Shown: positions 9,242-27,532, counted from the stretch's first letter. The stretch is 64,000 nt of DNA from an uncultured Acetobacteraceae bacterium (GCA_964245075.1 CAXTLC010000009.1:6440-70439), one strand, 5' to 3'. A program made the numbers and translations. Notes: generated by a model not told the origin, from the sequence alone.

Positions 9242-10094
9242 AAGATTGCGATAGTCAAAAATGACACAGTGACCGCGCGTAGTTGGAACTCGGCCGCATT
9301 GCTCGCGTTCGCCCGCGCTCAGCGCACCCCCGGCCAATGCCGTCCGACGGTGTCCGGCCTGCCCTGTCATGCCGCCCCGGTCCAAGCCCAGCATGCAGCA
9401 GGCCCACCGCCCAACCGACCCGGGCCGATGAAAGTAGTCCGTACGGTTCGGCACCATCACGTTGAACAGCCCCGTCGTGGCGCGTTCCTCCATGCAGCCA
9501 TGCAGGTGAAAGCGCTCGGGCGCTGGCCGCTCCCTCATAATTCGTGCACAATCATAGGGTAATGCCGGAAGGCAAACACGATCGGACCGCCTTCGGCGGA
9601 CACCGGACAGATCGTTTCATCGTCCAGCCTGCCTGCTTTCAGCTTGGGCACGTCAATGACGTTCACGATCCAAACCATCAGGCCGGATGCTGCATCCCGC
9701 AGCGATGCCGCCGTGACTATTAAGTGACGCGCCAAAACACTGCGGTCATTAATCAAAACAATGTATTAATCCGTACTGCAAGATGCTCAATGACAACCAG
9801 AGCCGTCGGTTTTCCAACATTCAGCGGCACCCATCGACTCAGCCACTATAGTTGTGGCTTCTTGGAAGTAACAGTCGGGTTTACTTCCGACTCTGATTCG
9901 AGATGGCGGTGAAACACCGTTGGCAGGCAAGCGGCTCCACCAGGGCGCGGAACAGCGGCCCTATCGGCCGTCGGTCGTTCCCACCCGGGATGGCACCCGA
10001 CGCCCGAGACGGCCGTGGAGCAGGGGCCGGTTGCGTGATGCCGGGGTGCCCGGCAAGCTTGCCGCAACACGTGCTGTAACAGTGAGGAACGGCG

Positions 10095-11318
10095 ATGCGC
10101 CTGGATGACACCCACGATACAGCCCGGCGAAGCTGGGCGCCCGGCGCGGACAGCGGCGACTTCCCGCTGCACAACCTGCCCCTTGGCATTTTCAGCCCGC
10201 CGGACGGCGTGCCCCGGCCCGGCATTGCCATCGGGAACGCAGTGCTGGACCTGCCCGCGGCCGGGCTGCTGCCGCTGACCGCGACCCTGAACGCCTTCTT
10301 GGCAGAGGGTGCCGCCGCCCGGCAGGAGCTCCGCCGCGCGGCTTGGCGCCTGCTGGAAGCGTCCGCCCCAGCACGGCCCGAGTGGCTGCACCCCCTGTCC
10401 AGCTGCACGCTGCACCTGCCCTGCGCGATCGGCGACTACACCGACTTCTTCGCCGGCATCCATCATGCCACCACGACCGGCCGGCTTCTCCGCCCCGACC
10501 ACCCGTTGATGCCCAATTACAAGTATGTGCCGATCGCCTACCACGGACGCGCCTCGTCCGTGCGGGCCAGCGGCGCGCCCGTTCATCGGCCGAGCGGCCA
10601 GCGCAAGCCGGCGAGGGACGCCGAACCGAGCTTCGGCCCGTCGCGCAACCTCGACTACGAGGTGGAACTCGGCATCTGGATCGGTCCGGGCAACAAGCCG
10701 GGCGAGCCGATCCCGATCGGGCAGGCGGCGGACCACATCGCGGGCTTCTGCTTGCTGAACGACTGGTCGGCGCGCGATATCCAGGGGTGGGAGTCGCAGC
10801 CGCTCGGCCCGTTCCTGGCGAAGAGCTTCTGCACCACTGTCAGCCCTTGGATCATCAGTCCCGAGGCCTTGGCGCCTTACCGCTGCGCCGCCATGCCCCG
10901 CGCGCCCGGTGACCCGGCGCCGTTGAGCTACTTGGCCGACCCCGCGGACCAGGCGGGGGGTGGGCTGGGCCTGGACTTGGAAGCGACGCTGGCCACGCCG
11001 GGCGCATCGGCCGTGCTGTCCCGCGGCACGGCGCGCGACCTGTACTGGACGGCGGCGCAGATGGTCGCCCACCACAGCAGCGGCGGGTGCGACTTGCGGC
11101 CAGGTGACCTGTTCGGTTCTGGCACCATCTCCGGCCCGGCGCCGGGGAGCCGGGGCTGCCTGCTGGAGATCACGGAAGGCGGCCGATCTCCGGTGTGCCT
11201 GCCGGACGGGACGGAACGGCGTTTCCTGGAAGATGGCGACACGGTCAGCCTTGCCGCCCGCTTCGGGTCTGCCGGGTTCGGGCCTTGCGTCGGCACGGTG
11301 GCCAGGGTGGCGTCGTGA
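10095..11318 (+). CDS. fahA: Fumarylacetoacetase
   Basis: DFPLHNLPLGIF, IGDYTDFFAGIHHA, NYKYVPIAYHGRASS, LDYEVELG, LLNDWSARDIQGWE, GDLFGSGTISG; GAGGA RBS. Confidence 0.93.
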   Translation: MRLDDTHDTARRSWAPGADSGDFPLHNLPLGIFSPPDGVPRPGIAIGNAVLDLPAAGLLPLTATLNAFLAEGAAARQELRRAAWRLLEASAPARPEWLHPLSSCTLHLPCAIGDYTDFFAGIHHATTTGRLLRPDHPLMPNYKYVPIAYHGRASSVRASGAPVHRPSGQRKPARDAEPSFGPSRNLDYEVELGIWIGPGNKPGEPIPIGQAADHIAGFCLLNDWSARDIQGWESQPLGPFLAKSFCTTVSPWIISPEALAPYRCAAMPRAPGDPAPLSYLADPADQAGGGLGLDLEATLATPGASAVLSRGTARDLYWTAAQMVAHHSSGGCDLRPGDLFGSGTISGPAPGSRGCLLEITEGGRSPVCLPDGTERRFLEDGDTVSLAARFGSAGFGPCVGTVARVAS

Positions 11319-12100
11319 CTGGCCGCTTGGCGGGCCGCACCGCGATCATCACCGGCGCGGGCAGCGGCATCGGCCGGGCCACTGCCCGCCTGTTCGCTGC
11401 CGAGGGCGCAAGGCTGCTGCTGGTGGACCGCAACGAGCAGGGATTGGCCGAGACGGCCGCGCCGATCGAGGGAGCCGCGCCCACGATGGTGGAAGCCGAT
11501 GCGGGCGACGAGGCTGACGTGGCGGCGTTCGTCGCCCGGGCGGTGGCGGATTGGGGCGCCATCGACGTGCTTTACGCCAATGCCGGGGTCAGCGGCGGGC
11601 TTCACCCGTTCCTGGACGAGACGGTCGAGCGGTGGACGGAGGTGCTGCGGGTGAACCTGCTCGGCCCGTTCCTGGCGATCAGGGCGGTGGCGCCGCACAT
11701 GGTCGCGCGTGGCCGTGGTTCGATCCTGTGCACCGCCTCGGTGGCTGGGTTGCGCGCCAACGCGGCGGGGGCGCCATACAGCGCGAGCAAGGCCGGCGTG
11801 ATCAGCCTGGTGCAGACCGCCGCCGACGCGCTGGCCGGCACGGGGGTGCGGGTGAACGCGATCTGCCCGGGGCTGATCGAGACGGGGATGACCGCTCCGA
11901 TCTTTGAGCGGGCGCGCGAGAAGGGAACGCTGGGCAAGGTCGGCCAGCTTAACCCGCTGCGCCGGGCTGGGGTGCCGGAGGAGATCGCTGGTGCGGCGTT
12001 GTTCCTGGCGAGCGACGACTCGGCATACGTGAACGGCCAGGCCATTGCGGTGGACGGCGGCTTGTCCAGCACGCATCCATTCACCGGGTCGAGACGTTGA
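11315..12100 (+). CDS. Short-chain dehydrogenase/reductase
   Basis: [22 protein letters not shown]; GTGA overlap with the fahA stop. Confidence 0.92.
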
Positions 12101-12134
12101 GGCTCGGCGCAGGCCGGCGAGGTTCGGAGGAACG

Positions 12135-12530
12135 ATGGAGATCAAGCGAAGCGGTTCGCAGCCGTCCGGCAAGGGACCGGCGGAGTGGTTTACCGGCGTG
12201 GTCCGTGTCGACCCGTTGTTCAGCCCGCCTGACCCGGCCCGCGTCAACGGCGCGCTCGTCACGTTCGAACCCGGCGCCCGCACAGCCTGGCACACGCACC
12301 CGCTCGGCCAGACCCTGATCGTGACTGCCGGCTGCGGCCGGGTTCAGCGTGAAGGCGGGGCGGTCGAGGACATCCGGCCCGGCGACGTGGTGTGGTTCGC
12401 GCCCGGCGAGAAGCACTGGCACGGGGCCACGCCGACCACGGCCATGAGCCACATCGCGGTGCAGGAGAAGCTGAACGGCTCGCCCGTGGACTGGATGGAA
12501 CACGTCAGCGACGAACAGTATCGCGCGTGA
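12135..12530 (+). CDS. Cupin domain protein
   Basis: [18 protein letters not shown]...GEKHWHGA cupin motifs; GGAGG RBS. Confidence 0.9.
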
Positions 12531-14407: not shown

Positions 14408-15721
14408 CTAGCCATGGCCGTCGCCCGTGACGCGCCAGATCACGTCGCCCACGTCGTCCGCCATCAGGAGGGACCGGCCGTCCGCGCCCAGCGTCACGCC
14501 GACCGGCCGCCCGAAGGACACGCGTTCGTCTGGCGCAAGGAACCCCCAGAGGATATCCCGCGGCGGCCCGGACGGACGTCCGTTCTCGAACGGCACGAAA
14601 ACAAGCTTGTAGCCGCTCAGCTTGCTGCGGTTCCACGACCCGTGCTGCCCGATCGCCATGCCTTCCGGGAAGCCCGGCAGCGTTCCGGCCGGCACCCAGC
14701 ACAAGCCCAGCGACGCGGTGTGCCCGCCGAGCGCGTAGTCCGGCGTCAGCGCCCTTGCGACTGCTTCCGGGTCCTGCGGGACGCGGTCGTCGACCGTCTG
14801 GCCCCAGTAGCAGTACGGCCAGCCGTAGAAGCCGCCATCGCGCACCGATGTCAGATAATCGGGCGGGGTCTCGTCGCCCAGGCCGTCGCGCTCGTTGACC
14901 ACGGTCCAAAGCGCGCCGGACGTTGGCTCCCAGGCCAGGCCCACCGGATTGCGCAAGCCGCTGGCAAAGATGCGGCTGCTGCCGCTCGCAAGGTCAAGCT
15001 CATAGACCGCGGCACGCCCCTGCTCGGCTTCCATGCCCTCGTCGCCGATGTTGCTGAGTGATCCGACGCCTGCGTAAAGCTTCTGGCCGTCAGGACTCGG
15101 CAACAGGCTCCGCGTCCAATGGCCGCCGGGCTTGAACTCGACCAGCTTGCGGCCTGGCACCGTGATCCGGTCCGCGCCGTCCACATAGGGGAAAACAACG
15201 ATGCCGTCGGTGTTGCCGACGTAGAACTCACCGTCCAGGAGCGCCATGCCGAAGGGCTGGTTCAGCCCTTCCATGAACACTTCCTGAGTTTCGGCGACGC
15301 CGTCGCCATTTGTGTCGCGCAGGAGTGTGATGCGGTTCGCACTTTCTCCCATGGCGGCCGCCCGCTTCATGGTGCTGACCATGGCGTAATCGAAGACGCC
15401 CTTGGCGGCCCTGGTCGCGTTGGTGGCTTCCGCGGCTAGAACATCCCCATTGGGCAGCACCAGAATCCAGCGCGGATGCTTGAGCCCAACGGCGAACGCG
15501 TTGACCTTGAGGCCGGGCGCCGCGAGCGGGGTTTGTCCCGGACTCCAACCCTGGGCCGTCGGCATCTTCAGCGTCGGAATGCTGCCTTGCGGCTTTGCCG
15601 CCGGAATGGCCGGAGCAGCCCCCCAGGCCGGTTCGGGCGCGCTGCCGTTCAACCGCCGCACCAATGTGGCCCCGCCGCCGACCAGCGAGACACCCCGCGC
15701 GAACATGTCCGAAAGATCCAA
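14408..15721 (-). CDS. Sorbosone dehydrogenase family (PQQ-type beta-propeller) protein
   Basis: LKHPRWILVLPNGDVL, GHWTRSL, GLRNPVGL, NERDGLGDETPPDY, GGHTASLGL, GRPVGV. Confidence 0.88.
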   Translation of the reverse strand: MDLSDMFARGVSLVGGGATLVRRLNGSAPEPAWGAAPAIPAAKPQGSIPTLKMPTAQGWSPGQTPLAAPGLKVNAFAVGLKHPRWILVLPNGDVLAAEATNATRAAKGVFDYAMVSTMKRAAAMGESANRITLLRDTNGDGVAETQEVFMEGLNQPFGMALLDGEFYVGNTDGIVVFPYVDGADRITVPGRKLVEFKPGGHWTRSLLPSPDGQKLYAGVGSLSNIGDEGMEAEQGRAAVYELDLASGSSRIFASGLRNPVGLAWEPTSGALWTVVNERDGLGDETPPDYLTSVRDGGFYGWPYCYWGQTVDDRVPQDPEAVARALTPDYALGGHTASLGLCWVPAGTLPGFPEGMAIGQHGSWNRSKLSGYKLVFVPFENGRPSGPPRDILWGFLAPDERVSFGRPVGVTLGADGRSLLMADDVGDVIWRVTGDGHG

Positions 15722-15822: not shown

Positions 15823-17235
15823 TCAACCAAACCGCCTTTTCCAGGCGAGCGTGCGCGCCCAGCGCCGCGCCGCGAGGCCGAACAACCCGGCTTCGTAGCC
15901 GCTGAACGCCGCGGCCTGCGACAGTTCGGAGCGGGTCGGGTAGGGCACGATCGCCTCGGTCAAGGCCCAGCGGCTCGCCTTGCCGCCCATCACCAGCGAC
16001 CAGGGCAACAGCAGCTCGCCCGCATGGGCTCCCAGGATGGTCACGCCCACGACGCGGCCCTGGAGCCGCACTACCTTGATAAAGCCATCGGTATCGCCTT
16101 CGGCCACGGCACGGTCGTTCTCGGACCAGTCTGCGCGCGTGACCTCGACCCGTCCGTGCCGGGCGCGAGCCGCCTCCTCCGTCAGCCCCAGTTGGGCAAG
16201 TTCGGGATCGCTGTAGGTCACGCTCGGCAGAAGCTGGAAATGGGCGGCAGCCGGCAGCCCGAACCCCAGCGCCGACACCAGGACCCGTCCCTCATGCCCG
16301 GCGGCATGGGTGAACCGCGGCCCAGCCCGGCAATCGCCGATCGCGTAGATGTGCTTGTTGCTGGTGCGTCGGCGGGCGTCCACCGTGATGCCGCGCTCGT
16401 CCCACGCCACGCCCGCCCGTGCGAGGCCCAGGCCGTCCAGCCGGGCGCGCCGCCCCGTGGCGACCAGCAGGTGCGAGCCGCGCATCGCGTCCCTTCCGGA
16501 GCACTCGAGCCGTATCCCGCCGGGCTCGGCGAACGCACCGGTGACGGTGGCGTGCTCGGCCACGGTGATCCCTTCCGCCCGGAGCAGCGCCAGGAGCCAA
16601 GCCGCCGCATCCCGATCGCCACGGGGAAGGAACGCGTGGCTGTCCACGATCGTCACCTCAGCCCCCAAACGCCGGAACGCCTGCGCCATCTCCGCCCCGG
16701 TCGAGCCGGCGCCCAGCACCAGCAAGTGCTGCGGCAGGGTGTCGAGCGCGAACAGGGTCTCGTTGGTCAGGAACGGCAGGCCGTGCAGCCCGGGGATTGG
16801 CGGCGCTGCCGGGTCGGAGCCGGTTGCGAGCACGATGCGCGGCGCTGCCAGGGCGCGGCTTCCTACCTGGACGGCATGCCGGCCGGCCAGGCTCGCGTCG
16901 CCCCGGATCACCTCCACGCCCCAGCCTGCGAACCGTTCCTCGGAGTCATGCGGCGCGATGGCAGCGACCGTCGCCGCCACGTGGGCACGCACGGCGGCGA
17001 AATCGATGGCCGGGCCAGCGCCGGCAACGCCGAGCCGGTCACCCCGCATCGCCTGTGCCCGGCGTGCCGCCGCCAGCAGTGCCTTGGAGGGCACGCAGCC
17101 GGTGTTGAGGCACTCGCCGCCCATGCGGCCACGCTCGATCAGCGCCACGCGCAGGCCGAGCCGGGCGCAGCCGCCGGCCACGGTCAAGCCGGCCGCCCCC
17201 GCGCCGATCACGACCACATCATGCGTCCAGTCCAA
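15823..17235 (-). CDS. Pyridine nucleotide-disulfide oxidoreductase (MerA/dihydrolipoamide dehydrogenase-like)
   Basis: VVVIGAGAAG, GGECLNTGCVPSK redox disulfide, GAGSTGAEMA, YAIGDC; TTG start inferred after GGAGG; no C-terminal Cys-Cys. Confidence 0.88.
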   Translation of the reverse strand: MDWTHDVVVIGAGAAGLTVAGGCARLGLRVALIERGRMGGECLNTGCVPSKALLAAARRAQAMRGDRLGVAGAGPAIDFAAVRAHVAATVAAIAPHDSEERFAGWGVEVIRGDASLAGRHAVQVGSRALAAPRIVLATGSDPAAPPIPGLHGLPFLTNETLFALDTLPQHLLVLGAGSTGAEMAQAFRRLGAEVTIVDSHAFLPRGDRDAAAWLLALLRAEGITVAEHATVTGAFAEPGGIRLECSGRDAMRGSHLLVATGRRARLDGLGLARAGVAWDERGITVDARRRTSNKHIYAIGDCRAGPRFTHAAGHEGRVLVSALGFGLPAAAHFQLLPSVTYSDPELAQLGLTEEAARARHGRVEVTRADWSENDRAVAEGDTDGFIKVVRLQGRVVGVTILGAHAGELLLPWSLVMGGKASRWALTEAIVPYPTRSELSQAAAFSGYEAGLFGLAARRWARTLAWKRRFG

Positions 17236-17278
17236 AGCAGGCCTCCATTCGCGGCGAAAGGCGGACCATATAGCTGGC

Positions 17279-18421
17279 ATGGCATCCAACGAATCGGCCC
17301 CGCGCGCTTTGCGTGTTCTCGTGACGGGGGCCGCCGGGCTGATCGGGCAGGAACTCTGCGCGGCACTCGCCCGGCGCGGCCATGCGGTTGCGGGGCTGCT
17401 GCGCCGCGGGGGCACGCCTTCCCGCAGCCGCGGCGTGGTGCAACCCTACTGCGGCCATCTCGCGCCGGGCACGGTCGCGCTGGTCGAGGGGGACGTCGCG
17501 GAGCCCGGCCTTGGCATGGCGCCGGAGTTGGCCGCGCGTTTGGCGGCGGGATTGGACCTCGTGGTGCATTGCGCCGCAGTGACCGGTTTCAGCCTGCCGG
17601 ACGAAACCTACCAGCGGGTGAACACGGACGGCACGGCACGGGTGCTGGAGCTTGCCGCGACGTCCCACCCGCCGGCCGGCCTGCTCCATGTCAGCACCGC
17701 CTACGTGTGCGGCGGCGCGCAGGGGACCGTGGCGGAGGCACCCTGCGCGCCCGCCCAGTTCAACAACGGCTACGAGGCGAGCAAGGCGGCGGCGGAAACG
17801 CTGGTTTGGGCGGCGCAGCATGAGGGCCAGGCCGTCGCCGTGGCCCGGCCTTCGATCGTGGCCGGACGCTGGGCGGATGGGGAGACGGCAAGCTTCGGCG
17901 CCGTTTACCAGTTGATCCGCCTGGTCGCCGAAGGCCGCATCCGGATGCTGCCGGCAGGGCACGGCGCCAGCCTGGACCTGGTTCCCATCGACCACGTGGT
18001 GGGCGGGCTGGTGGACATCGCCGAGCGCATGGCGGACGCCAACGGCCGCGTCTTCCACCTCGCGTCCGGCTGCCCGGTGCCGCTTGCGGCGCTGCGGCAT
18101 CTCGCCACGGCGTTCCCGCACCTTCACGCGCCCCGCTTCGTCACGCCGGACCGGTTCCAGCCCGCCCGCCCCGGCGGACGGGAGCGCTGGCTGCAAGACC
18201 AGGTCGTAACAGCCTACGCCGCCTACCTCCGCCCCAGCCCGCGCTTCCAAACCGCCAACCTGCTGGCGCTCACTGGCCGGAGCTGCCCGCCGGTGAACGA
18301 GGGCTATCTCCGGCGCTTGATCGCCTTCGCGATCTCAGCGGGGTTCCTGCCGGGCGAGCGGGTCAGCGGACGTCCGGATAATGGCGGTCAAGCTGCCGCC
18401 GCAGCCCAACCGCCCAACTGA
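17279..18421 (+). CDS. Extended SDR, thioester/fatty-acyl reductase-like (NAD_binding_4 type)
   Basis: VLVTGAAGLIG, VHCAAVTGF, LHVSTAYVCG, YEASK, ARPSIVAG. Confidence 0.82.
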   Translation: MASNESAPRALRVLVTGAAGLIGQELCAALARRGHAVAGLLRRGGTPSRSRGVVQPYCGHLAPGTVALVEGDVAEPGLGMAPELAARLAAGLDLVVHCAAVTGFSLPDETYQRVNTDGTARVLELAATSHPPAGLLHVSTAYVCGGAQGTVAEAPCAPAQFNNGYEASKAAAETLVWAAQHEGQAVAVARPSIVAGRWADGETASFGAVYQLIRLVAEGRIRMLPAGHGASLDLVPIDHVVGGLVDIAERMADANGRVFHLASGCPVPLAALRHLATAFPHLHAPRFVTPDRFQPARPGGRERWLQDQVVTAYAAYLRPSPRFQTANLLALTGRSCPPVNEGYLRRLIAFAISAGFLPGERVSGRPDNGGQAAAAAQPPN

Positions 18422-19088
18422 CGCTGACCCGAAGGTAGATCAGGTTGGCCCGCACCGGCCCCCAGGCCGCGACCCGGCGGTCCGAGGTGATCACGACCCG
18501 GTTGACCATCCGGGTCCGGCCGAAGCGGTGCAGCCGGACGCACAGGTCGGCGTCCTCCATGATGGGCAACGCCGTGTCGCAGCCGCCGGCGGCGAGGAAG
18601 TCCTCCCGGCGGAAGAACATGGCGTGGTCGCCGAACAGCAGGCGCGCGCCCCGCAGGAACAGATGCGGCCGGAACAGCATCGGTCCGTAGTAGGTCTTGG
18701 CCCAGTTGTGCAGGCTGGTGCCCCAGCGCACCCGGTCCGGCCCGCTCAGCAGCGGCGTGAAGCTGGCCAGCGCCAACCGCCGGTCCGCCATGGTGGCGGT
18801 GATCACCGCCACCGCGTCGTCCGGCAGGATGGTGTCCGCGTGCAGCACGCAAACCAGGGGGGCGCTCGCAGCGTCCACCCCGGCGTTGATCTGCGCGCCG
18901 CGGCCCCGGGGCGCGGTGATGACCCGCAGCCCGCCCGCCTGCGCGATGGCGGCGGACCCGTCCGTGCTGCCGCCGTCCACGGCGATGATCTCGGCCGGCG
19001 CCGGGTGCAGCACGCGCAGGCAGCGCAGCAGCCGGGGCAGGGCCGCCGCCTCGTTCAGCATGGGGATCACCACCGCCACCGCGCTCAC
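18363..19088 (-). CDS. Glycosyltransferase family 2 (TIGR04283-like, rSAM/selenodomain-associated transferase 2)
   Basis: VVIPMLNEA, VDGGSTDGS, RGAQINAG, VLHADT, FGDHAMF, IMEDADL, TSDRR; GTG start overlapping the upstream TGA. Confidence 0.85.
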   Translation of the reverse strand: MSAVAVVIPMLNEAAALPRLLRCLRVLHPAPAEIIAVDGGSTDGSAAIAQAGGLRVITAPRGRGAQINAGVDAASAPLVCVLHADTILPDDAVAVITATMADRRLALASFTPLLSGPDRVRWGTSLHNWAKTYYGPMLFRPHLFLRGARLLFGDHAMFFRREDFLAAGGCDTALPIMEDADLCVRLHRFGRTRMVNRVVITSDRRVAAWGPVRANLIYLRVSVSWAVGLRRQLDRHYPDVR

Positions 19089-19684
19089 GGCAGCAGTCCG
19101 GGGAAGCGGCCCAGGTCCTCCGGGCGGTCCAGGTCGGCCAGCGGCGGCAGCAGCCCGCAAGGCCGCCCGCCCGCTCGGAGCCGCCGCTGCGTTTCGGCCA
19201 GCACGCCGTCCGTCCCCCATGCCATCCCGCTGAACAGCCAGGGCGCCAGGGCCGGCAGGCCGAGCAGGTAGTACCCGCCGTCCTCCGCCGGGCCGAGCGC
19301 CACCTTGCCCGCGGCCAGCAGTCGCACCGCCGCATTGATGTGGGCGGGCGTCAGGTCCGGCAGGTCGGCGCCGACCACGAGGGCCGGGGCGGGGTCGAGA
19401 CAGCGCTGCATGCGTGCGCCCAGGTCGCCCTCGCCCTGCGGCCGGATCGTGACCTCGTTGCCTAGCCAGGCCGCGAAGGCGTCCGGCGCGGCGCCCGTGA
19501 CCCAGACCTCCACCGGCAGGCCTGTCGCGCGGAGGATGGCCAGCGTCGTCTCCGTCAACCGGCGGTGCAGCGCGGCGGCCCCGGCGGCGCCCAGGGCCGG
19601 GATGAGCCGGGTTTTGGCCCGGCCCGGCTCCGGGAAGCGGGTGAGCAGCACCAGGCGGGGCGTTCCAGCCGCATGGTCCGTCAC
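19085..19684 (-). CDS. TIGR04282/DUF2064-like CofC-fold transferase
   Basis: LVLLTRFPEPGRAKTRLIPALG, QGEGDLGARM, VGADLPDL, LGPAEDGGYYLLGL, LADLDRPEDL. Confidence 0.88.
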   Translation of the reverse strand: MTDHAAGTPRLVLLTRFPEPGRAKTRLIPALGAAGAAALHRRLTETTLAILRATGLPVEVWVTGAAPDAFAAWLGNEVTIRPQGEGDLGARMQRCLDPAPALVVGADLPDLTPAHINAAVRLLAAGKVALGPAEDGGYYLLGLPALAPWLFSGMAWGTDGVLAETQRRLRAGGRPCGLLPPLADLDRPEDLGRFPGLLP

Positions 19685-19686
19685 GC

Positions 19687-19722
19687 GGTTCGGCCGAAGG
19701 TTCGGCCCACCGTTCGGCTGAA
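19687..19722. repeat. Three tandem 12-bp direct repeats in a divergent promoter
   Basis: GGTTCGGCCGAA / GGTTCGGCCCAC / CGTTCGGCTGAA. Confidence 0.65.
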
Positions 19723-19743
19723 ACCGCTTGCAGGCCGGCCCGC

Positions 19744-20589
19744 GTGCCACATCTCCGCTCCATGCCAGGCACCGAAGGCAGCCGTCCATCCCTGCCGCTC
19801 GGCCCGCTTCTGGCCGTGGCCGGCTTGGCCGCCGTCATGGCGCTGGAGCGCCGTTCCCCGCTGCGCCGCCCGACCCAGCGTGAGCCGGCGCGCACGGCCC
19901 GCAACCTCCTGCTGGGACTGCTGAGCATGGCCGCCGTCGCCGCGGCGGAGGGGCCGCTGGTGCGCCAACTGGCGGACATGGCGCAGCGGCGGCGCTGGGG
20001 GTTGGTGCAGCGCCTGCATGCGCCGGCCTGGCTGCGCGACGCGCTCGCGGTGGTCGGCATGGACTACACGATCTACCTCTGGCACGTGCTGACCCACAAA
20101 GTGCCGTTGCTGTGGCGCTTTCACCTCGTGCACCACCTGGACCTGGACCTGGACAGCACCACGGCGCTGCGCTTCCACGCCGTGGACATGCTGATCTCCA
20201 TCCCGTGGCGGGCGGCGCAGGTGCTGCTGCTCGGCACCTCCCGCCGGGCGCTGTCCGTGTGGCAAGGCTTCTTCTTCTCGTCCGTCGTGTTCCACCATTC
20301 CAATATACGCCTGCCGCCCCGGCTGGAACGGGGGCTGGCCACCGTGCTGACCACGCCGCGCATGCACGGCATCCATCACTCTGCGGCCCGCGAGGACACC
20401 GACTCCAACTGGTCCAGCGGGCTCAGCGTGTGGGACCACCTGCACCGCACCTTCCGGCTTGACGTGGGGCAGCGGCGCACCCGCATCGGCGTCCCCGGCT
20501 ACCGCGATCCGGCGGAGCTGCGGCTGCGCCCATCCCTCGCCCTGCCGTTCCGGCCGCAGCGGGACGCCTGGACGCCGCCCCCGCGCTAG
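19744..20589 (+). CDS. Sterol desaturase / fatty acid hydroxylase family membrane protein
   Basis: His boxes WHVLTH, FHLVHH, FHHSN, HGIHH; NWSSGLSVWDHL; start could be ATG 19762. Confidence 0.9.
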   Translation: MPHLRSMPGTEGSRPSLPLGPLLAVAGLAAVMALERRSPLRRPTQREPARTARNLLLGLLSMAAVAAAEGPLVRQLADMAQRRRWGLVQRLHAPAWLRDALAVVGMDYTIYLWHVLTHKVPLLWRFHLVHHLDLDLDSTTALRFHAVDMLISIPWRAAQVLLLGTSRRALSVWQGFFFSSVVFHHSNIRLPPRLERGLATVLTTPRMHGIHHSAAREDTDSNWSSGLSVWDHLHRTFRLDVGQRRTRIGVPGYRDPAELRLRPSLALPFRPQRDAWTPPPR

Positions 20590-20597
20590 CCCGCAAT

Positions 20598-20623
20598 CGC
20601 CCTGACTGGAAATAGTCAGGGCG
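20598..20623. terminator. Perfect 10-bp hairpin between convergent genes
   Basis: CGCCCTGACT-GGAAAT-AGTCAGGGCG. Confidence 0.6.
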
Positions 20624-20687
20624 TCAATTGCCAGGCCAGACAAAGAGTTAGACCGCGCTGACCGTTTACGGCCAGCCAAGAAGCGGT

Positions 20688-22100
20688 CTAGGCCCCGGCA
20701 AGCCGGCGCGCGGGAACCAGCACGGTGCCCAGCAGGAACCCGGCGGTGCAGAGCAGCAGGCCCCAGGCGTTCACGCCCAGGTCCGCCGCGAACGCGCCGC
20801 TGCCCAGGTCAAGCGCTTGCGGCAGGATGCGCAGCTTCGCGAACACCTCGATCCCGCGGATCACCCCGAGCATGACGCCGGGCCAGAAGGCAAGGTGGAA
20901 GCTGAGCGCGCCCGCCTGCCGCACCCAGCACAGCAGGAAGATCGGCGCCAGGCCCATCACCATGGTGCCGCTGAGCGTGGTGGCCGCGATGACGGCGGGG
21001 CCGACCCGGTCGCCCATGTAGATGGTCAGCAGCGGCAGGTTGCCGAGTACCGCCACGGCGAGGATTGCCAGGCGGCCGACCCAGACGTTGCGGGAGTCGG
21101 CTTCCGCCGCCTGGTTGCGCCAGTCCCGCCCGGCCAGCTTGGCGCCGCTGGTGAAGGCCGAGTCGAGGGTGGAGCCGCCGGACACCAGCATGATGGCGTT
21201 GAACACCATCAGCATCGGGATGCCGAAGGAAGCCGGCACGCTGACGCTGGGGGTGTCGCCGGAGCCGAAGGCCCGGCCGTACAGCCCGATCAGGCTGAAC
21301 AGGAAGATGAAGCCGCCGCTCAGCAGCCCGGCCAGCAGGAACGCCCGCAAGGCTTGGCCCGGCGCGTTGAGGAAGCCGCGGTCGGTCAGCACCGGGTCGT
21401 GGAACGGGTAGGAGAAGACCTGCACGCCCGCCAGCAGGCAGAAGGTGATGCCCGCGTCCTGCGTGGCCCGCGGCACGGGGGCGAGGCCGTGGCTGGCAAG
21501 CGGCGGCAGCAGCAGCGCCAGCACGAGCGCCAGCAACGCGAAAGCCAGCACGATGTGGATGCGGTCGGTGGTCAGGCTGGCCCGCATGCCGCCGCGCCAG
21601 GCATAGGCGACGGTGAACAGCGTCACCAGCACCGCCGCCCACCAGTATGGCGCCGCGCCCTCCGCGCCGAAATACAGGGAGATGACCTTGGTGTTCGACC
21701 AGACCTCGTTGAACAGCCGGAACGCCACCAGGAGCAGGAACAGCCGGGCGCACGCCGGGCCGTAGCGGTCCAGCAGCAGGTGGGACAGGGAGCGGTAATG
21801 CCAGCGGCGGCGGACCGCCCAGATCGCCACGCCGGCGACGGCGAAGCTCAGATAGTAAACGGTGTAGCCGATGCCGCCGGCCAGCCCGTAGCCGTAAGCG
21901 AGGGCGGACGCGTTGGCGATCGACTTCGCGAACACCCAGGTGATGGCGGCGCTCATCGCCACCATCAGCACGCCGGGCGCCGCATTGCGGCTGTTCCGTC
22001 CGTCGAAGAACTGCGGCGCCGTGACCTGCCTCGGGGTGACGGCCCATGTCACGGCGCAGAACAAGGCGAGGACGATCCAGGGCGCGATCTGCGGCAGCAT
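20688..22100 (-). CDS. Sodium:solute symporter-family membrane transporter
   Basis: About 13 hydrophobic segments; TWVFAKS, YAWRGGMRASLTTD, SYPFHDPVLTDRGF, STLDS. Confidence 0.8.
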   Translation of the reverse strand: MLPQIAPWIVLALFCAVTWAVTPRQVTAPQFFDGRNSRNAAPGVLMVAMSAAITWVFAKSIANASALAYGYGLAGGIGYTVYYLSFAVAGVAIWAVRRRWHYRSLSHLLLDRYGPACARLFLLLVAFRLFNEVWSNTKVISLYFGAEGAAPYWWAAVLVTLFTVAYAWRGGMRASLTTDRIHIVLAFALLALVLALLLPPLASHGLAPVPRATQDAGITFCLLAGVQVFSYPFHDPVLTDRGFLNAPGQALRAFLLAGLLSGGFIFLFSLIGLYGRAFGSGDTPSVSVPASFGIPMLMVFNAIMLVSGGSTLDSAFTSGAKLAGRDWRNQAAEADSRNVWVGRLAILAVAVLGNLPLLTIYMGDRVGPAVIAATTLSGTMVMGLAPIFLLCWVRQAGALSFHLAFWPGVMLGVIRGIEVFAKLRILPQALDLGSGAFAADLGVNAWGLLLCTAGFLLGTVLVPARRLAGA

Positions 22101-22172
22101 GGCAGGGACACTACCTTTGGGGTCCCAAATGTCCATATCTCGGGCGCGAGCCTCATCCTGACGGAGCCGACT

Positions 22173-23138
22173 TTGCGGGATTCGCCCATCGCCGGCCCAC
22201 CCTGCCAGCCGGCTGCCACGCGCGGACGGTTCGCCGATCCGCTGGTCACCGCCACGGGCGAGCGGCGCGCATCCGTCCCGCTCGAAGCGCTGCGGACGCT
22301 CTGGTTCAACACGGGGACGCTGTGCAACGTCGCCTGCACCGGCTGCTACATCGAGAGCAGCCCCGCCAACGACCGCCTCGCCTACCTCAGCCGGTCGGAC
22401 GTGCTCGGCTTCCTGGCCGAGGCCCGGCTGCTGCACCCGGAGCTGGCGGAAATCGGCTTCACCGGGGGCGAGCCTTTCATGAACCGCGACATGCCCGGCA
22501 TGATGCGCGACGCGCTCCGGGCGGGGTTTCGCGTGCTGGTGCTCACCAACGCCATGCGCCCGATGCAGCGCTTCGCGGCCGAGCTGGCGGAGCTGGCGGA
22601 CGAGTACCGGGACCGCATCACGGTGCGGGTGTCGCTCGACCACCACACGGCCGGGCGGCACGAGGCGGTGCGCGGTGCGCGGAGCTGGGCGCCCGCGCTG
22701 GAGGGGCTGCGCTTCCTGGCGCGGCACCGCATCCGCCTCGCCATCGCCGGACGCACGCCTTGGGACGAGACGGAGGCATCCCTGCGGGACGGCTACCGGC
22801 GGCTGTTCGCCGAACTCGGCCTCGCGGTGGATGCGTCGGACCCGGCCCAGCTCGTGCTGTTCCCGGAGATGGACGCGCGGCCGGACGTGCCGGAGATCAC
22901 GGAACGCTGCTGGGCCATCCTCGGCAAAAAACCGGGCGACGTGATGTGCGCCGGGTCCCGCATGGTGGTCCGCCGGCGCGGCGCCGACCGGCCCGCCGTC
23001 GTGAGCTGCACCTTGCTGCCCTACGACGAGGCGTTCGAGCTCGGCGGCACGCTGGCGGAGGCGAGCGGGGCGGTGAGCCTCAACCACCGCTTCTGCGCGC
23101 AGTTCTGCGTGCTGGGCGGGGCGTCGTGCAGCCCGTAG
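22173..23138 (+). CDS. Radical SAM protein with Cys-rich C-terminus (distantly ArsS/TIGR04167-like)
   Basis: LWFNTGTLCNVACTGCYIES CxxxCxxC, FTGGEPF, LTNA, C-terminal VMC...SC...HRFCAQFCVLGGASCSP; TTG start inferred after GGAG. Confidence 0.88.
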   Translation: MRDSPIAGPPCQPAATRGRFADPLVTATGERRASVPLEALRTLWFNTGTLCNVACTGCYIESSPANDRLAYLSRSDVLGFLAEARLLHPELAEIGFTGGEPFMNRDMPGMMRDALRAGFRVLVLTNAMRPMQRFAAELAELADEYRDRITVRVSLDHHTAGRHEAVRGARSWAPALEGLRFLARHRIRLAIAGRTPWDETEASLRDGYRRLFAELGLAVDASDPAQLVLFPEMDARPDVPEITERCWAILGKKPGDVMCAGSRMVVRRRGADRPAVVSCTLLPYDEAFELGGTLAEASGAVSLNHRFCAQFCVLGGASCSP

Positions 23139-23428: not shown

Positions 23429-24127
23429 CTAAGATGGAAGCAGCAGTTCCGGCAGTCCAGAAAGGTCCTTCAGCATCGCGTCGGGCTGCCAAGCGGAGTC
23501 AAGAGGCTCGCCTTCCCGGTCGATCCAAACAGACCGAATGCCGAGTTCATGGCAAACCTTCAGGTCAGTAAATTGACCCATGCCCACATGGATCGTCTCG
23601 TCCTTCGAAACCCCCATAGTGGCGTATGCCTGAAGGAAGAGCCGGTGATCGGGCTTGTAGGCCTGAGCCTGCTGAGCGGTTACGACGAAATCAAGGGGTG
23701 TGCTGATCGCGGCCACGGTTCCGGCAATGAGCTTGTCACCGGTATTGCTGATGATGGCTATCTGGTAGCGTTCACGCAGGCGGGAGAGCACGTCCGGTAC
23801 CTCGGGATGGGGATCAATCCTGCCCAAGGTCGCTAGTAGCGTCTGCAAGTCTGCTGCCGTTGCCTCGTAGCCGGCTTCGGACAAAGCTTGGTTCAAGCTG
23901 GCATGCAGCACAGCTTCATAATCACGAAAGACGGGCTGCTGCTGCTGTTCAACTGCTATCCCTCGCAGCCGGTCCGCGAATGCAGCAACCTGATCCTGCG
24001 GGGTATTCGCCGGCAGGTGCCGGCCCAGGATCACACGAGCAGCCTGCCGCACGGCACGATGCCACTGAACCAGCGTGCCATAGCAGTCGAAGGTGATAAC
24101 CTTGGGTAGTGGATTGAGTTTGAGGAT
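23429..24127 (-). CDS. HAD-family hydrolase (haloacid dehalogenase type II-like) lacking a canonical start codon
   Basis: ITFDCYGTLVQW motif I, IISN, YKPD, HVGMGQFTD; motif I lies upstream of the first GTG; ATC at 24127 sits 8 nt after GGAG. Confidence 0.75.
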   Translation of the reverse strand: MLKLNPLPKVITFDCYGTLVQWHRAVRQAARVILGRHLPANTPQDQVAAFADRLRGIAVEQQQQPVFRDYEAVLHASLNQALSEAGYEATAADLQTLLATLGRIDPHPEVPDVLSRLRERYQIAIISNTGDKLIAGTVAAISTPLDFVVTAQQAQAYKPDHRLFLQAYATMGVSKDETIHVGMGQFTDLKVCHELGIRSVWIDREGEPLDSAWQPDAMLKDLSGLPELLLPS

Positions 24128-26542: not shown

Positions 26543-27532
26543 ATGATGTCCACCCGCGTCCTTATCGACCACCGTGCCGGCGGCGTGCTCCGTGACGCAG
26601 AGGCACCGCGGCATCCGGAAAAGGCGAACCGCCTGCCCACCCCGGCGTTGCGCAAGCCCGACTGGATCCGCGTGCGCGCGCCCAATCACCCGACCTACCA
26701 CGAGACTCGCGCGCTGATGCGGGAGAACCAGCTCGTCACCGTCTGCGAGGAAGCGGCCTGCCCCAACATCGGCGAGTGCTGGTCCCAGCGGCACGCGACC
26801 ATGATGATCATGGGGGACACCTGCACCCGCGCCTGCGCGTTCTGCAACGTGGCGACCGGGCTGCCGCAGCCTCTGGACGCGTCCGAGCCGGCGCGGGTGG
26901 CGGACGCGGTGGCCAAGCTGGGGCTGCGCCACGTCGTGGTCACCTCCGTGGACCGCGACGACCTGCCGGACGGCGGCGCCGCCCATATCGCCGCCACCAT
27001 CCGGGCCATCCGCGCCGCGGCGGCGGATACGACGGTCGAGGTGCTGACGCCGGACTTCCTGCGCAAGCCGGGTGCGGCCGAGCTGGTCGCGGCGGCCAGG
27101 CCGGACGTGTTCAACCACAACCTGGAAACGGTGCCGCGGCTTTATCCGGGAATCCGGCCGGGCGCCCGCTACTACCAGTCCCTCCGGCTGCTGGACCACG
27201 TCAAGACGCTGGACCCGGGCATCTTCACCAAATCCGGCTTGATGGTCGGCCTGGGCGAGTCGCGGGCGGAGATCATGCAAGTCATGGACGACATGCGGAT
27301 GGCCGACATCGATTTCCTCACCCTCGGCCAGTACCTGCAACCGACGCCCCGGCATGCCGCGGTGGACCGCTTCGTCCCGCCGGACGAATTCGCCGAATAC
27401 GCCAGCATGGCGCGCGCCAAGGGGTTCCTGATGGTTTCGGCCACGCCGCTCACCCGTTCGTCCTACCACGCCGACAGTGATTTCGCGGCGCTGCGGGCCG
27501 CCCGGGCGAGCAGAACCGGCGGGGCGCGCTAG
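26543..27532 (+). CDS. lipA: Lipoyl synthase
   Basis: [41 protein letters not shown]. Confidence 0.98.

Follow-up and report, generated by a model that had tools for sequence, protein, structure and literature searches.

A conserved seven-gene cluster from an uncultured Acetobacteraceae bacterium as a candidate variant of the 'arsenosugar biosynthesis' module

A 64,000-nucleotide (nt) stretch of a contig from an uncultured Acetobacteraceae bacterium (GCA_964245075.1, CAXTLC010000009.1:6440-70439), referred to as the window and used for all numbering, harbors a cluster of seven genes on both strands at positions 15823-23138. The cluster encodes an enzyme of the radical S-adenosylmethionine (SAM) type, two transferases of the TIGR04282 and TIGR04283 types, a flavoprotein disulfide reductase, a membrane hydroxylase, a short-chain dehydrogenase/reductase (SDR), and a symporter-like protein. 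These seven genes form a real conserved cluster. It is proposed that they encode one pathway, a variant of the module annotated as 'arsenosugar biosynthesis', whose product would be a 5-deoxyribose linked to a heteroatom. For this composite reading, including the order of its steps, the chances for and against are judged to be about equal. One pathway homologous to the module of ArsS, the radical SAM enzyme of arsenosugar synthesis, is held much more confidently than arsenic as the heteroatom or a lipid as the product. The product is probably a modified 5-deoxyribose sugar, and it is perhaps arsenic-bearing and lipid-linked.

The distribution of the genes was surveyed in 301 Alphaproteobacteria sampled evenly across families (254 genera), and the statistics given below are not corrected for phylogeny. 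The radical SAM family of the locus is present in 91 of these genomes (~30%) and TIGR04282 in 120. Both occur together in 88 genomes, the radical SAM family alone in three, TIGR04282 alone in 32, and neither of them in 178 (Fisher test, p 2e-44). This co-occurrence at the genome level is near perfect, so that even unlinked genes for the radical SAM family and the two transferases act like parts of a single functional unit. A preliminary description of this DNA had postulated a conserved unit of TIGR04282- and TIGR04283-type transferases with a distant relative of ArsS, and had set co-occurrence across genomes beforehand as the test, which was strongly passed.

True ArsS (above the family cut-off) is encoded by three of the 301 genomes, all of which lack the locus-type radical SAM family and carry TIGR04282 a few kb from ArsS. 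The operon of genome G087 consists of DedA, a flavoprotein (NF004991, 511 bits), ArsS (457 bits), DUF3179, FA_hydroxylase, an MTAP-type phosphorylase (279 bits, above cut-off), TIGR04283, TIGR04282, MsrB, and MsrA. The operon of G016 comprises TIGR04282, DedA, a flavoprotein, ArsS, MTAP, and TIGR04283, and in G138 ArsS is accompanied by DedA, a flavoprotein, TIGR04282, and a GT2 glycosyltransferase. Because the partner genes of true ArsS operons match those of the locus, the enzyme found here appears to stand in for ArsS, and its family appears to take the place of ArsS in a shared module across Alphaproteobacteria. In the genome studied here, the best match of the G087 operon flavoprotein is the locus flavoprotein (264 bits vs 206 for an Lpd paralogue), and that of the G087 operon hydroxylase is the locus hydroxylase (35% identity). 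As ArsS operons carry both enzymes and the locus genes are their best matches, the flavoprotein and the hydroxylase belong to a wider module common to both radical SAM types. For the hydroxylase, the earlier description as an addition was not borne out; the flavoprotein is a core partner of both module types, and in 18 of 83 related loci it lies next to the gene of the radical SAM enzyme.

All seven genes, with order and strands kept, recur in two Acetobacteraceae-type loci (L010 and L012) at 67-92% identity, with 89-90% for the GT2. Five of the genes are kept in L009 and six in a Novosphingobium locus (L090). In Porphyrobacter (L064), a tight block contains the genes for the DUF2064 protein (TIGR04282), GT2, SDR, an ArsM-like methyltransferase, the flavoprotein, and the radical SAM enzyme. 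The operon of Afipia sp. 1NLS2 (L007) starts with the radical SAM gene, followed by genes for an ArsM-like protein, a PHO4 carrier, DedA, the flavoprotein, TIGR04283, TIGR04282, and an AhpD-like protein, and an MTAP/PNP-type gene is located close to it. MTAP-type genes lie in or beside the cluster in G016, G087, L007, L033, and L084; the genome studied here has a housekeeping copy on its contig C5. DedA is common in relatives. A genome-wide search of this genome found no ArsM, true ArsS, DedA, or AhpD-like gene. As a separate observation, the Afipia cluster (L007:1-9540) has a Trb-type region for conjugative transfer and a LuxI/LuxR pair as direct neighbours, and this position suggests an integrative element as its carrier.

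The radical SAM enzyme shows the motif CNVACTGC (CxxxCxxC), followed by YIESSP. In 20 homologues, C51, C55, and C58 as well as C246, C259, C279, C308, C312, and C319 are invariant; the six Cys beyond CxxxCxxC sit in the C-terminal third, including CAQFCVLGGASC. A Pfam scan of the protein detected nothing beyond PF04055. Among curated families, the highest score is obtained with the Rv1681 family (NF049973, 81.7 bits, cut-off 380), followed by ArsS (TIGR04167, 52.3 bits, cut-off 300), where the match stays below the cut-off and covers only positions 5-144 of the 303 of the model. A profile comparison with ArsS (hhalign) yields a probability of 98.3%, an E-value of 2.5e-14, and 25% identity over ~180 columns (39-220), i.e. 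over the core only, and the core segment CN..C..C[YH][IV]E..P is common to locus-type enzymes and ArsS. More than 8000 database relatives were found, all of them unnamed. A pattern scan of species-representative genomes detected the family in at least 600 species, mostly Alphaproteobacteria, and also in Gammaproteobacteria, Gemmatimonadota, Latescibacterota, Planctomycetota, and Acidobacteriota. On the basis of these comparisons, the enzyme is assigned to a large separate family without a name, distinct from ArsS. Its AlphaFold model (pLDDT, the predicted local distance difference test, of 81) has BlsE, a nucleoside-sugar decarboxylase, as the best fold match (template modelling score 0.56). 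The predicted fold thus falls among twitch/SPASM-like enzymes, and this match is uninformative on the substrate. Solved structures include no close relative, either by sequence or by fold. The expectation that the enzyme is only distantly related to TIGR04167 and is claimed by no characterised family therefore agrees with the family scans and with both kinds of structure search. Longer homologues were considered as fusions, with one metallophosphoesterase N-terminus (23 bits, below cut-off) and one HAD segment, both too weak to be retained, and no fusion to ArsM was seen among homologues of the family.

Compared with ArsS (from Synechocystis sp. PCC 6803, where it is accompanied by ArsM), the locus enzyme has a homologous radical SAM core, and both proteins possess a Cys-rich C-terminal part. 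The partner set of TIGR04282, TIGR04283, MerA-like flavoprotein, DedA, FA_hydroxylase, and MTAP is common to them, and the two families exclude each other across genomes, which alternatives would be expected to do. They differ in the C-terminal domain, as no DUF3641-type domain was detected in the locus enzyme, and in Cys spacing (CxxxC-x6-C in the locus enzyme, CxxC-x7-C in ArsS). They also differ in the lack of ArsM here and in frequency, the locus family being far commoner in Alphaproteobacteria (91 vs 3 of 301). The Rv1681 family gives the top curated score for the locus enzyme and its relatives (82-101 bits), but these scores are far below its cut-off, and no functional study of Rv1681 was found in the literature.

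The DUF2064 protein passes the TIGR04282 cut-off of 134 bits with 185.1 bits over the full model, and it matches PDB entry 3cgx, a 'putative nucleotide-diphospho-sugar transferase', with an E-value of 2e-20. For the GT2, TIGR04283 is the best family by far; its 172.8 bits over positions 2-215 of 221 remain 9 bits under the cut-off of 182. Both domains are fused (440-446 amino acids) in two genomes of 1.2 Mb and ~30% G+C (L095:2762-4087 of G115 and G273:C1:537886-538443), and in a fusion genome of this type a DedA gene forms a pair with that of the radical SAM enzyme. De novo clustering of open reading frames (ORFs) around the radical SAM gene placed a GT2 in 57-66 of the 83 loci. These were mostly alternative-frame ORFs overlapping the radical SAM gene in GC-rich DNA, and the cleaned number is ~20 loci. 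As side observations, MsrB is encoded directly downstream of the fusion gene in both 1.2-Mb genomes, as it is after TIGR04282 in the unrelated G087 ArsS operon. The genome studied here (G000) also harbors a second TIGR04282-like gene (126 bits, below cut-off) on contig C13:64371-67500 (locus L011, ~9371-12476). It is followed by genes for a GT87-like membrane glycosyltransferase and a radical SAM/SPASM enzyme, with fdhD adjoining, and represents a separate pairing of DUF2064 with a radical SAM enzyme of another type.

The flavoprotein reaches neither of its closest curated cut-offs (NF004991, 396 bits vs 620; MerA TIGR02053, 315 bits vs 454), and its matches also include mycothione and glutathione reductases. 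It carries a CLNTGC redox pair, has the His of the HPT..E motif replaced by Tyr, and ends in a C-terminus without Cys, so that there is no C-terminal Cys pair. A class-I disulfide reductase with a CxxxxC pair and with such matches might also team up with the AhpD-like, Msr, and DedA proteins of relatives in a unit for redox defence or metalloid detoxification. In such a unit, a low-molecular-weight thiol or selenol glycoside would be the product of the sugar enzymes and would be recycled by the flavoprotein, as in the case of mycothiol and mycothione reductase. GT-A transferases are known to build glycosides of the mycothiol and bacillithiol types, and MsrA/MsrB and AhpD-like genes adjoin in relatives. 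However, the cluster encodes no cysteine ligase, deacetylase, or other thiol-building enzyme, its form in this genome is devoid of Msr and AhpD genes, and the radical SAM enzyme and its MTAP-type partner would be left unexplained. A thiol-glycoside pathway is therefore considered unlikely.

The hydroxylase scores above the cut-off of the superfamily model PF04116 (76 bits, cut-off 31) and below that of its best NCBIfam model, the ornithine lipid hydroxylase OlsE (NF052566; 73 bits, cut-off 475). Of 80 genomes with the system, 56 carry homologues at E <= 1e-25, compared with 14 of 80 that lack it (p 2e-11). When only genomes of at least 2.5 Mb are considered, the numbers are 47 of 70 and 10 of 25 (p 0.03). 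In at least six families, homologues adjoin a TIGR04282 or radical SAM gene, and the module is commonly accompanied by the hydroxylase.

The SDR scores 124 bits with PF07993 (cut-off 20.1) and 103.5 bits with TIGR01746 (cut-off 213), and it shows TGAAGLIG and YEASK motifs. The nearest solved structures are MxaA (4u7w) and a terminal R domain of a polyketide synthase (8v1x), and the protein is predicted to be a reductase of the thioester-reductase type (terminal R domain/fatty acyl reductase). Orthologues are found in two of the 301 genomes, the one other than this genome being G146, where the gene also lies inside the cluster. Beyond that, it is located inside the cluster in L009, L010, L012, L064, and L090. 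The SDR is a rare, system-specific add-on. Of the two lipid-type enzymes that had been regarded as additions to the cluster, the SDR retains this status, and the hydroxylase does not, given its frequency in genomes with the system and its presence in one ArsS operon.

The symporter-like protein has no Pfam match and obtains only 25.8 bits with TIGR00813 (cut-off 184). Its homologues (62-92% identity) bear names of SSS symporters in their sources, and several of them (64-82%) match PF00474. Its earlier designation as a Na+:solute symporter is weaker than the other gene assignments. The gene occurs in 13 of the 301 genomes; TIGR04282 is present in all 13 and the radical SAM family in 11 (p 4e-6), and it adjoins the radical SAM gene in L010, L012, L013, and L014. 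The symporter is a genuine but occasional partner, and its proposed membership in the cluster is borne out by the carriers. In ~13 of the 83 loci (e.g. L013, L014, and L101), a Metallophos_2 phosphoesterase gene is located between the SSS-like transporter and radical SAM genes or beside either of them; it is absent from the cluster studied here.

In the proposed pathway, the divergent SSS-type transporter would import the substrate, and the flavoprotein may hold this substrate, or its thiol carrier, in the reduced state. The radical SAM enzyme would attach the 5'-deoxyadenosyl group of SAM to the heteroatom, as ArsS does with dimethylarsenite. An MTAP-type enzyme, encoded in the cluster in relatives and by the housekeeping copy here, could strip off adenine, yielding a 5-substituted 5-deoxyribose-1-phosphate. 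The TIGR04282 protein may convert this sugar phosphate into a nucleoside diphosphate sugar, as suggested by its CofC/MobA-like fold and the match to 3cgx. The TIGR04283-like GT2 would then move the sugar onto a glycerol-type or lipid acceptor, and the membrane di-iron hydroxylase and the thioester-reductase-like SDR may prepare or modify the lipid part. Arsenic would be the most likely heteroatom; at this locus, it is only plausible, because the genome has no ArsM-type gene. As ArsM is lacking, the transporter would have to supply a methylated arsenical, or else arsenite would be used unmethylated. The preliminary description had put forward import, adenosylation, glycosylation, and attachment to an acyl chain, and as a proposal this chemistry is reasonable.

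Several observations weigh against this reading, either as a single pathway or with respect to arsenic. Given the alternating strands and the short divergent gaps, the seven genes make at least four transcription units. Partner genes lie within 7 kb in only about a quarter of the 83 related loci and are dispersed elsewhere. A rival view takes the genes as chance neighbours that have no common pathway and whose synteny was inherited in one lineage; the separate transcription units on alternating strands would suit it. The full seven-gene form is found in close relatives only, and the radical SAM and TIGR04282 genes are distant from each other in most genomes. Chance would nevertheless not account for the near-perfect co-occurrence of these two families. 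Nor would it explain that the flavoprotein, hydroxylase, GT2, and DUF2064 genes regroup in other orders in distant families, and also next to a radical SAM enzyme of a different kind, that SDR orthologues occur only inside such clusters, and that no genome without the system carries the transporter. An origin by chance is consequently regarded as very improbable. With regard to the assignment to the ArsS module, the Cys-rich C-terminal part could not be aligned with its ArsS counterpart by hhalign, and the NCBIfam scores place the family nearer to the uncharacterised Rv1681 family than to ArsS. The roles of MTAP, TIGR04282, GT2, SDR, and hydroxylase are predicted from fold and context only. 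A literature search found no experiments with members of this radical SAM family or with TIGR04282 or TIGR04283 proteins, and nothing on the function of the latter two, of DUF2064, or of Rv1681; the 'arsenosugar' names reflect association with ArsS.

Arsenic in particular is disfavoured by the genome-wide search of this genome, which revealed no ArsM-type gene, and by the absence of such a gene from 56 of the 91 genomes with the family and from all three alphaproteobacterial ArsS genomes. Furthermore, the neighbourhood of the radical SAM gene in 81 loci shows no recurring ars resistance genes. The family, found in ~30% of Alphaproteobacteria including genomes of 1.2 Mb and ~30% G+C, looks more housekeeping-like than arsenic handling. 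The preliminary description had pointed out that no ArsM was visible, which is correct for the entire genome. Yet this does not mark out the locus, because the majority of module carriers in Alphaproteobacteria, true ArsS operons included, also lack ArsM.

The same facts would suit an alternative in which module and steps are unchanged, and sulfur, selenium, or a carbon acceptor (e.g. a lipid alkene) is the partner of the 5'-deoxyadenosyl group. The product would be a 5-deoxyribosyl compound linked through sulfur, selenium, or carbon, serving in housekeeping or redox protection. HpnH (adenosylhopane) and MqnE are examples of enzymes that join 5'-deoxyadenosyl to a carbon acceptor. This alternative is also favoured by the recurrence of redox partners, namely the flavoprotein disulfide reductase, AhpD/CMD-like proteins, and MsrB beside TIGR04282 in two unrelated genomes, and by the common presence of a member of the lipid-acting hydroxylase/desaturase superfamily. 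On the other hand, genomes with the family show an 18-fold enrichment of ArsM-type methyltransferases (35 of 91 vs 7 of 210 without it, p 1e-14), which are often its neighbours, their genes adjoining the radical SAM gene in G135, G189, G216, G237, L007, and L064. No trait of selenium use came to light, and none was searched for. PHO4 carriers (phosphate/arsenate-type) are likewise encoded in or near two clusters. Moreover, ArsS, the sole characterised enzyme of the homologous module, uses dimethylarsenite (PMC13598754); it adenosylates DMAs(III) to 5'-deoxy-5'-dimethylarsinoyl-adenosine (DDMAA) (PMC13598754; PMC12159101, citing Cheng et al. 2021). In view of both sides, a sulfur, selenium, or carbon partner is deemed possible, though somewhat doubtful.

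Within the arsenic form of the proposed pathway, it is suggestive that symporter genomes never carry ArsM (0 of 11 vs 35 of 80, p 0.006). This exclusion, which involves few independent lineages, fits the uptake of a substrate that is already methylated. It may tentatively be considered, as an idea that is rather less than probable, that the radical SAM family constitutes a third independent family forming a C-As (or other C-heteroatom) bond from SAM, after ArsS and ArsL, and the main one in Alphaproteobacteria, where it occurs in ~30% of genomes, streamlined ones of marine type included. In that case, heterotrophs would make arsenosugars or arsenosugar lipids on a large scale, here on a reduced, hydroxylated acyl chain and from an imported arsenical. 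If this were true, the makers of arsenosugars and their lipids would include heterotrophic bacteria and not algae and cyanobacteria alone. As a side observation, a methyltransferase of 350-415 amino acids that is nearest to the arsinothricin-type ArsM model (NF040538, 375 bits, cut-off 500; e.g. L092:2209-3261 in G195) was found in 17 of the sampled genomes, each of which also has the locus-type radical SAM family, with the genes unlinked.

Three further known systems allow comparison. The 'arsenosugar biosynthesis' cassette of NCBIfam is defined by association and consists of TIGR04282, TIGR04283, a peroxidase-like protein (TIGR04169), ArsM (NF038099), and TIGR04167. The locus resembles it in a TIGR04282 protein above cut-off with an adjoining, translationally coupled TIGR04283-like GT2, and a relative's cluster (Afipia, L007) also contains AhpD/CMD-like and ArsM-like genes. 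It differs in the absence of ArsS, ArsM, and the peroxidase-like gene, and in the additional SSS-like transporter, SDR, and hydroxylase. ArsL of arsinothricin synthesis (arsQML) is a non-canonical radical SAM enzyme that forms the C-As bond directly on inorganic As(III), with ArsM acting later and a dedicated permease. A further likeness lies in the ArsM-type genes co-occurring with the locus family, which score best with the arsinothricin ArsM model. In contrast, ArsL is not among the family matches of the locus enzyme, transfers a 3-amino-3-carboxypropyl instead of a 5'-deoxyadenosyl group, and has no TIGR04282 or TIGR04283 partners. HpnH and HpnG of bacteriohopanepolyol synthesis are alike in logic only: a radical SAM enzyme adds 5'-deoxyadenosyl, and a PNP/MTAP-type enzyme removes adenine to give a ribosyl-linked lipid. 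A family scan detected no sequence relation to HpnH, and the cluster is devoid of hopanoid genes.

The association of TIGR04282 and TIGR04283 with radical SAM enzymes is already known and encoded in NCBI family names. No paper was found in the literature on the replacement radical SAM family, its breadth, or its exclusion with ArsS, on the shared partner set of flavoprotein, DedA, hydroxylase, and MTAP, or on the rare form with SDR and symporter seen here. To our knowledge, only the first two steps of arsenosugar synthesis (ArsM and ArsS) have been shown experimentally, and the later enzymes leading to arsenosugars and arsenolipids are not known. The locus and its relatives offer a compact, testable gene set in this respect, in which the radical SAM gene is joined by genes for an MTAP-type phosphorylase, a protein of nucleotidyltransferase fold, a GT2, the flavoprotein, the membrane hydroxylase, and DedA or a symporter. 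An unstudied radical SAM family appears to fill the ArsS position in ~30% of Alphaproteobacteria. If the module is based on arsenic, it revises who makes organoarsenicals in soils and oceans. If it is not, the 'arsenosugar' names that have spread automatically to thousands of genomes mislead, and a common bacterial metabolite is still undiscovered. Cultured carriers include Afipia sp. 1NLS2, Roseomonas sp. HF4, Maritimibacter dapengensis, and Marinibacterium sp. SX1.

The features of the cluster are compiled in the table below. As the G+C content of the region is ~70%, raw ORF lists are crowded; genes were thus picked by third-position G+C and family scans, and starts were refined by comparison with close relatives. 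Gene calling and family scans confirmed the seven genes of the preliminary description with their folds, coordinates, and strands, the symporter less firmly than the others.

Features of the seven-gene cluster in the 64,000-nt window
Feature	Position	Strand	Evidence
Class-I flavoprotein disulfide reductase (Lpd/MerA-like)	15823-17235	-	PF07992 191 bits
Thioester-reductase-like extended SDR (predicted)	17279-18421	+	PF07993 124 bits
GT-A fold GT2, TIGR04283-like	18363-19088	-	TIGR04283 172.8 bits; PF00535 70.8 bits
DUF2064/TIGR04282 protein, CofC/MobA-like nucleotidyltransferase fold	19085-19750	-	TIGR04282 185.1 bits; PF09837 103.6 bits
Membrane di-iron His-box enzyme (FA_hydroxylase superfamily)	19837-20589	+	PF04116 76 bits
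Two strong hairpins	20598-20690	no strand	Folding of the convergent hydroxylase/symporter gap
470-amino-acid polytopic membrane protein, probable divergent SSS relative	20688-22100	-	TIGR00813 25.8 bits; homologues
321-amino-acid radical SAM enzyme, unnamed family	22173-23138	+	PF04055 51.5 bits

The flavoprotein ORF is open up to 17415, and its likely start is a TTG at 17235, giving 470 amino acids as in relatives. The DUF2064 ORF is open up to 19789 and the hydroxylase ORF from 19744. Three divergent pairs, flavoprotein/SDR, DUF2064/hydroxylase, and symporter/radical SAM, are separated by gaps at 17236-17278 (43 nt), 19751-19836 (86 nt), and 22101-22172 (72 nt). The DUF2064 stop overlaps with the GTG start of the GT2 gene in GTGA. 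Of the two convergent junctions, SDR/GT2 shows a 59-nt overlap of the 3' ends that is the same in relatives, and hydroxylase/symporter has a gap that folds with -45.6 kcal/mol (z -5.5; none of 200 shuffles folded as well). The first stem of this gap comprises 10 bp (20598-20623), and the hairpin pair resembles a bidirectional terminator. A sigma-70 promoter scan returned no sites, and the count of terminators was not above that of shuffles. A shared operator in the three divergent gaps was considered and rejected: only the 8-9-mer CCATGCCAG recurs, partly within start codons, with a chance expectation of ~0.1.

The genes flanking the cluster, coding for a HAD hydrolase (23429-24052), a dehydrogenase of the pyrroloquinoline quinone (PQQ) type (14408-15721), a hexapeptide transferase, an amine-oxidase-like protein, and LipA, are not conserved with it and were rejected as members. 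For this reason, the boundaries drawn earlier for the cluster hold. The LipA gene encodes a lipoyl synthase, a LipA-type radical SAM enzyme with a LIAS_N domain, at 26543-27532 (+), 3.4 kb downstream, and is unrelated to the cluster.

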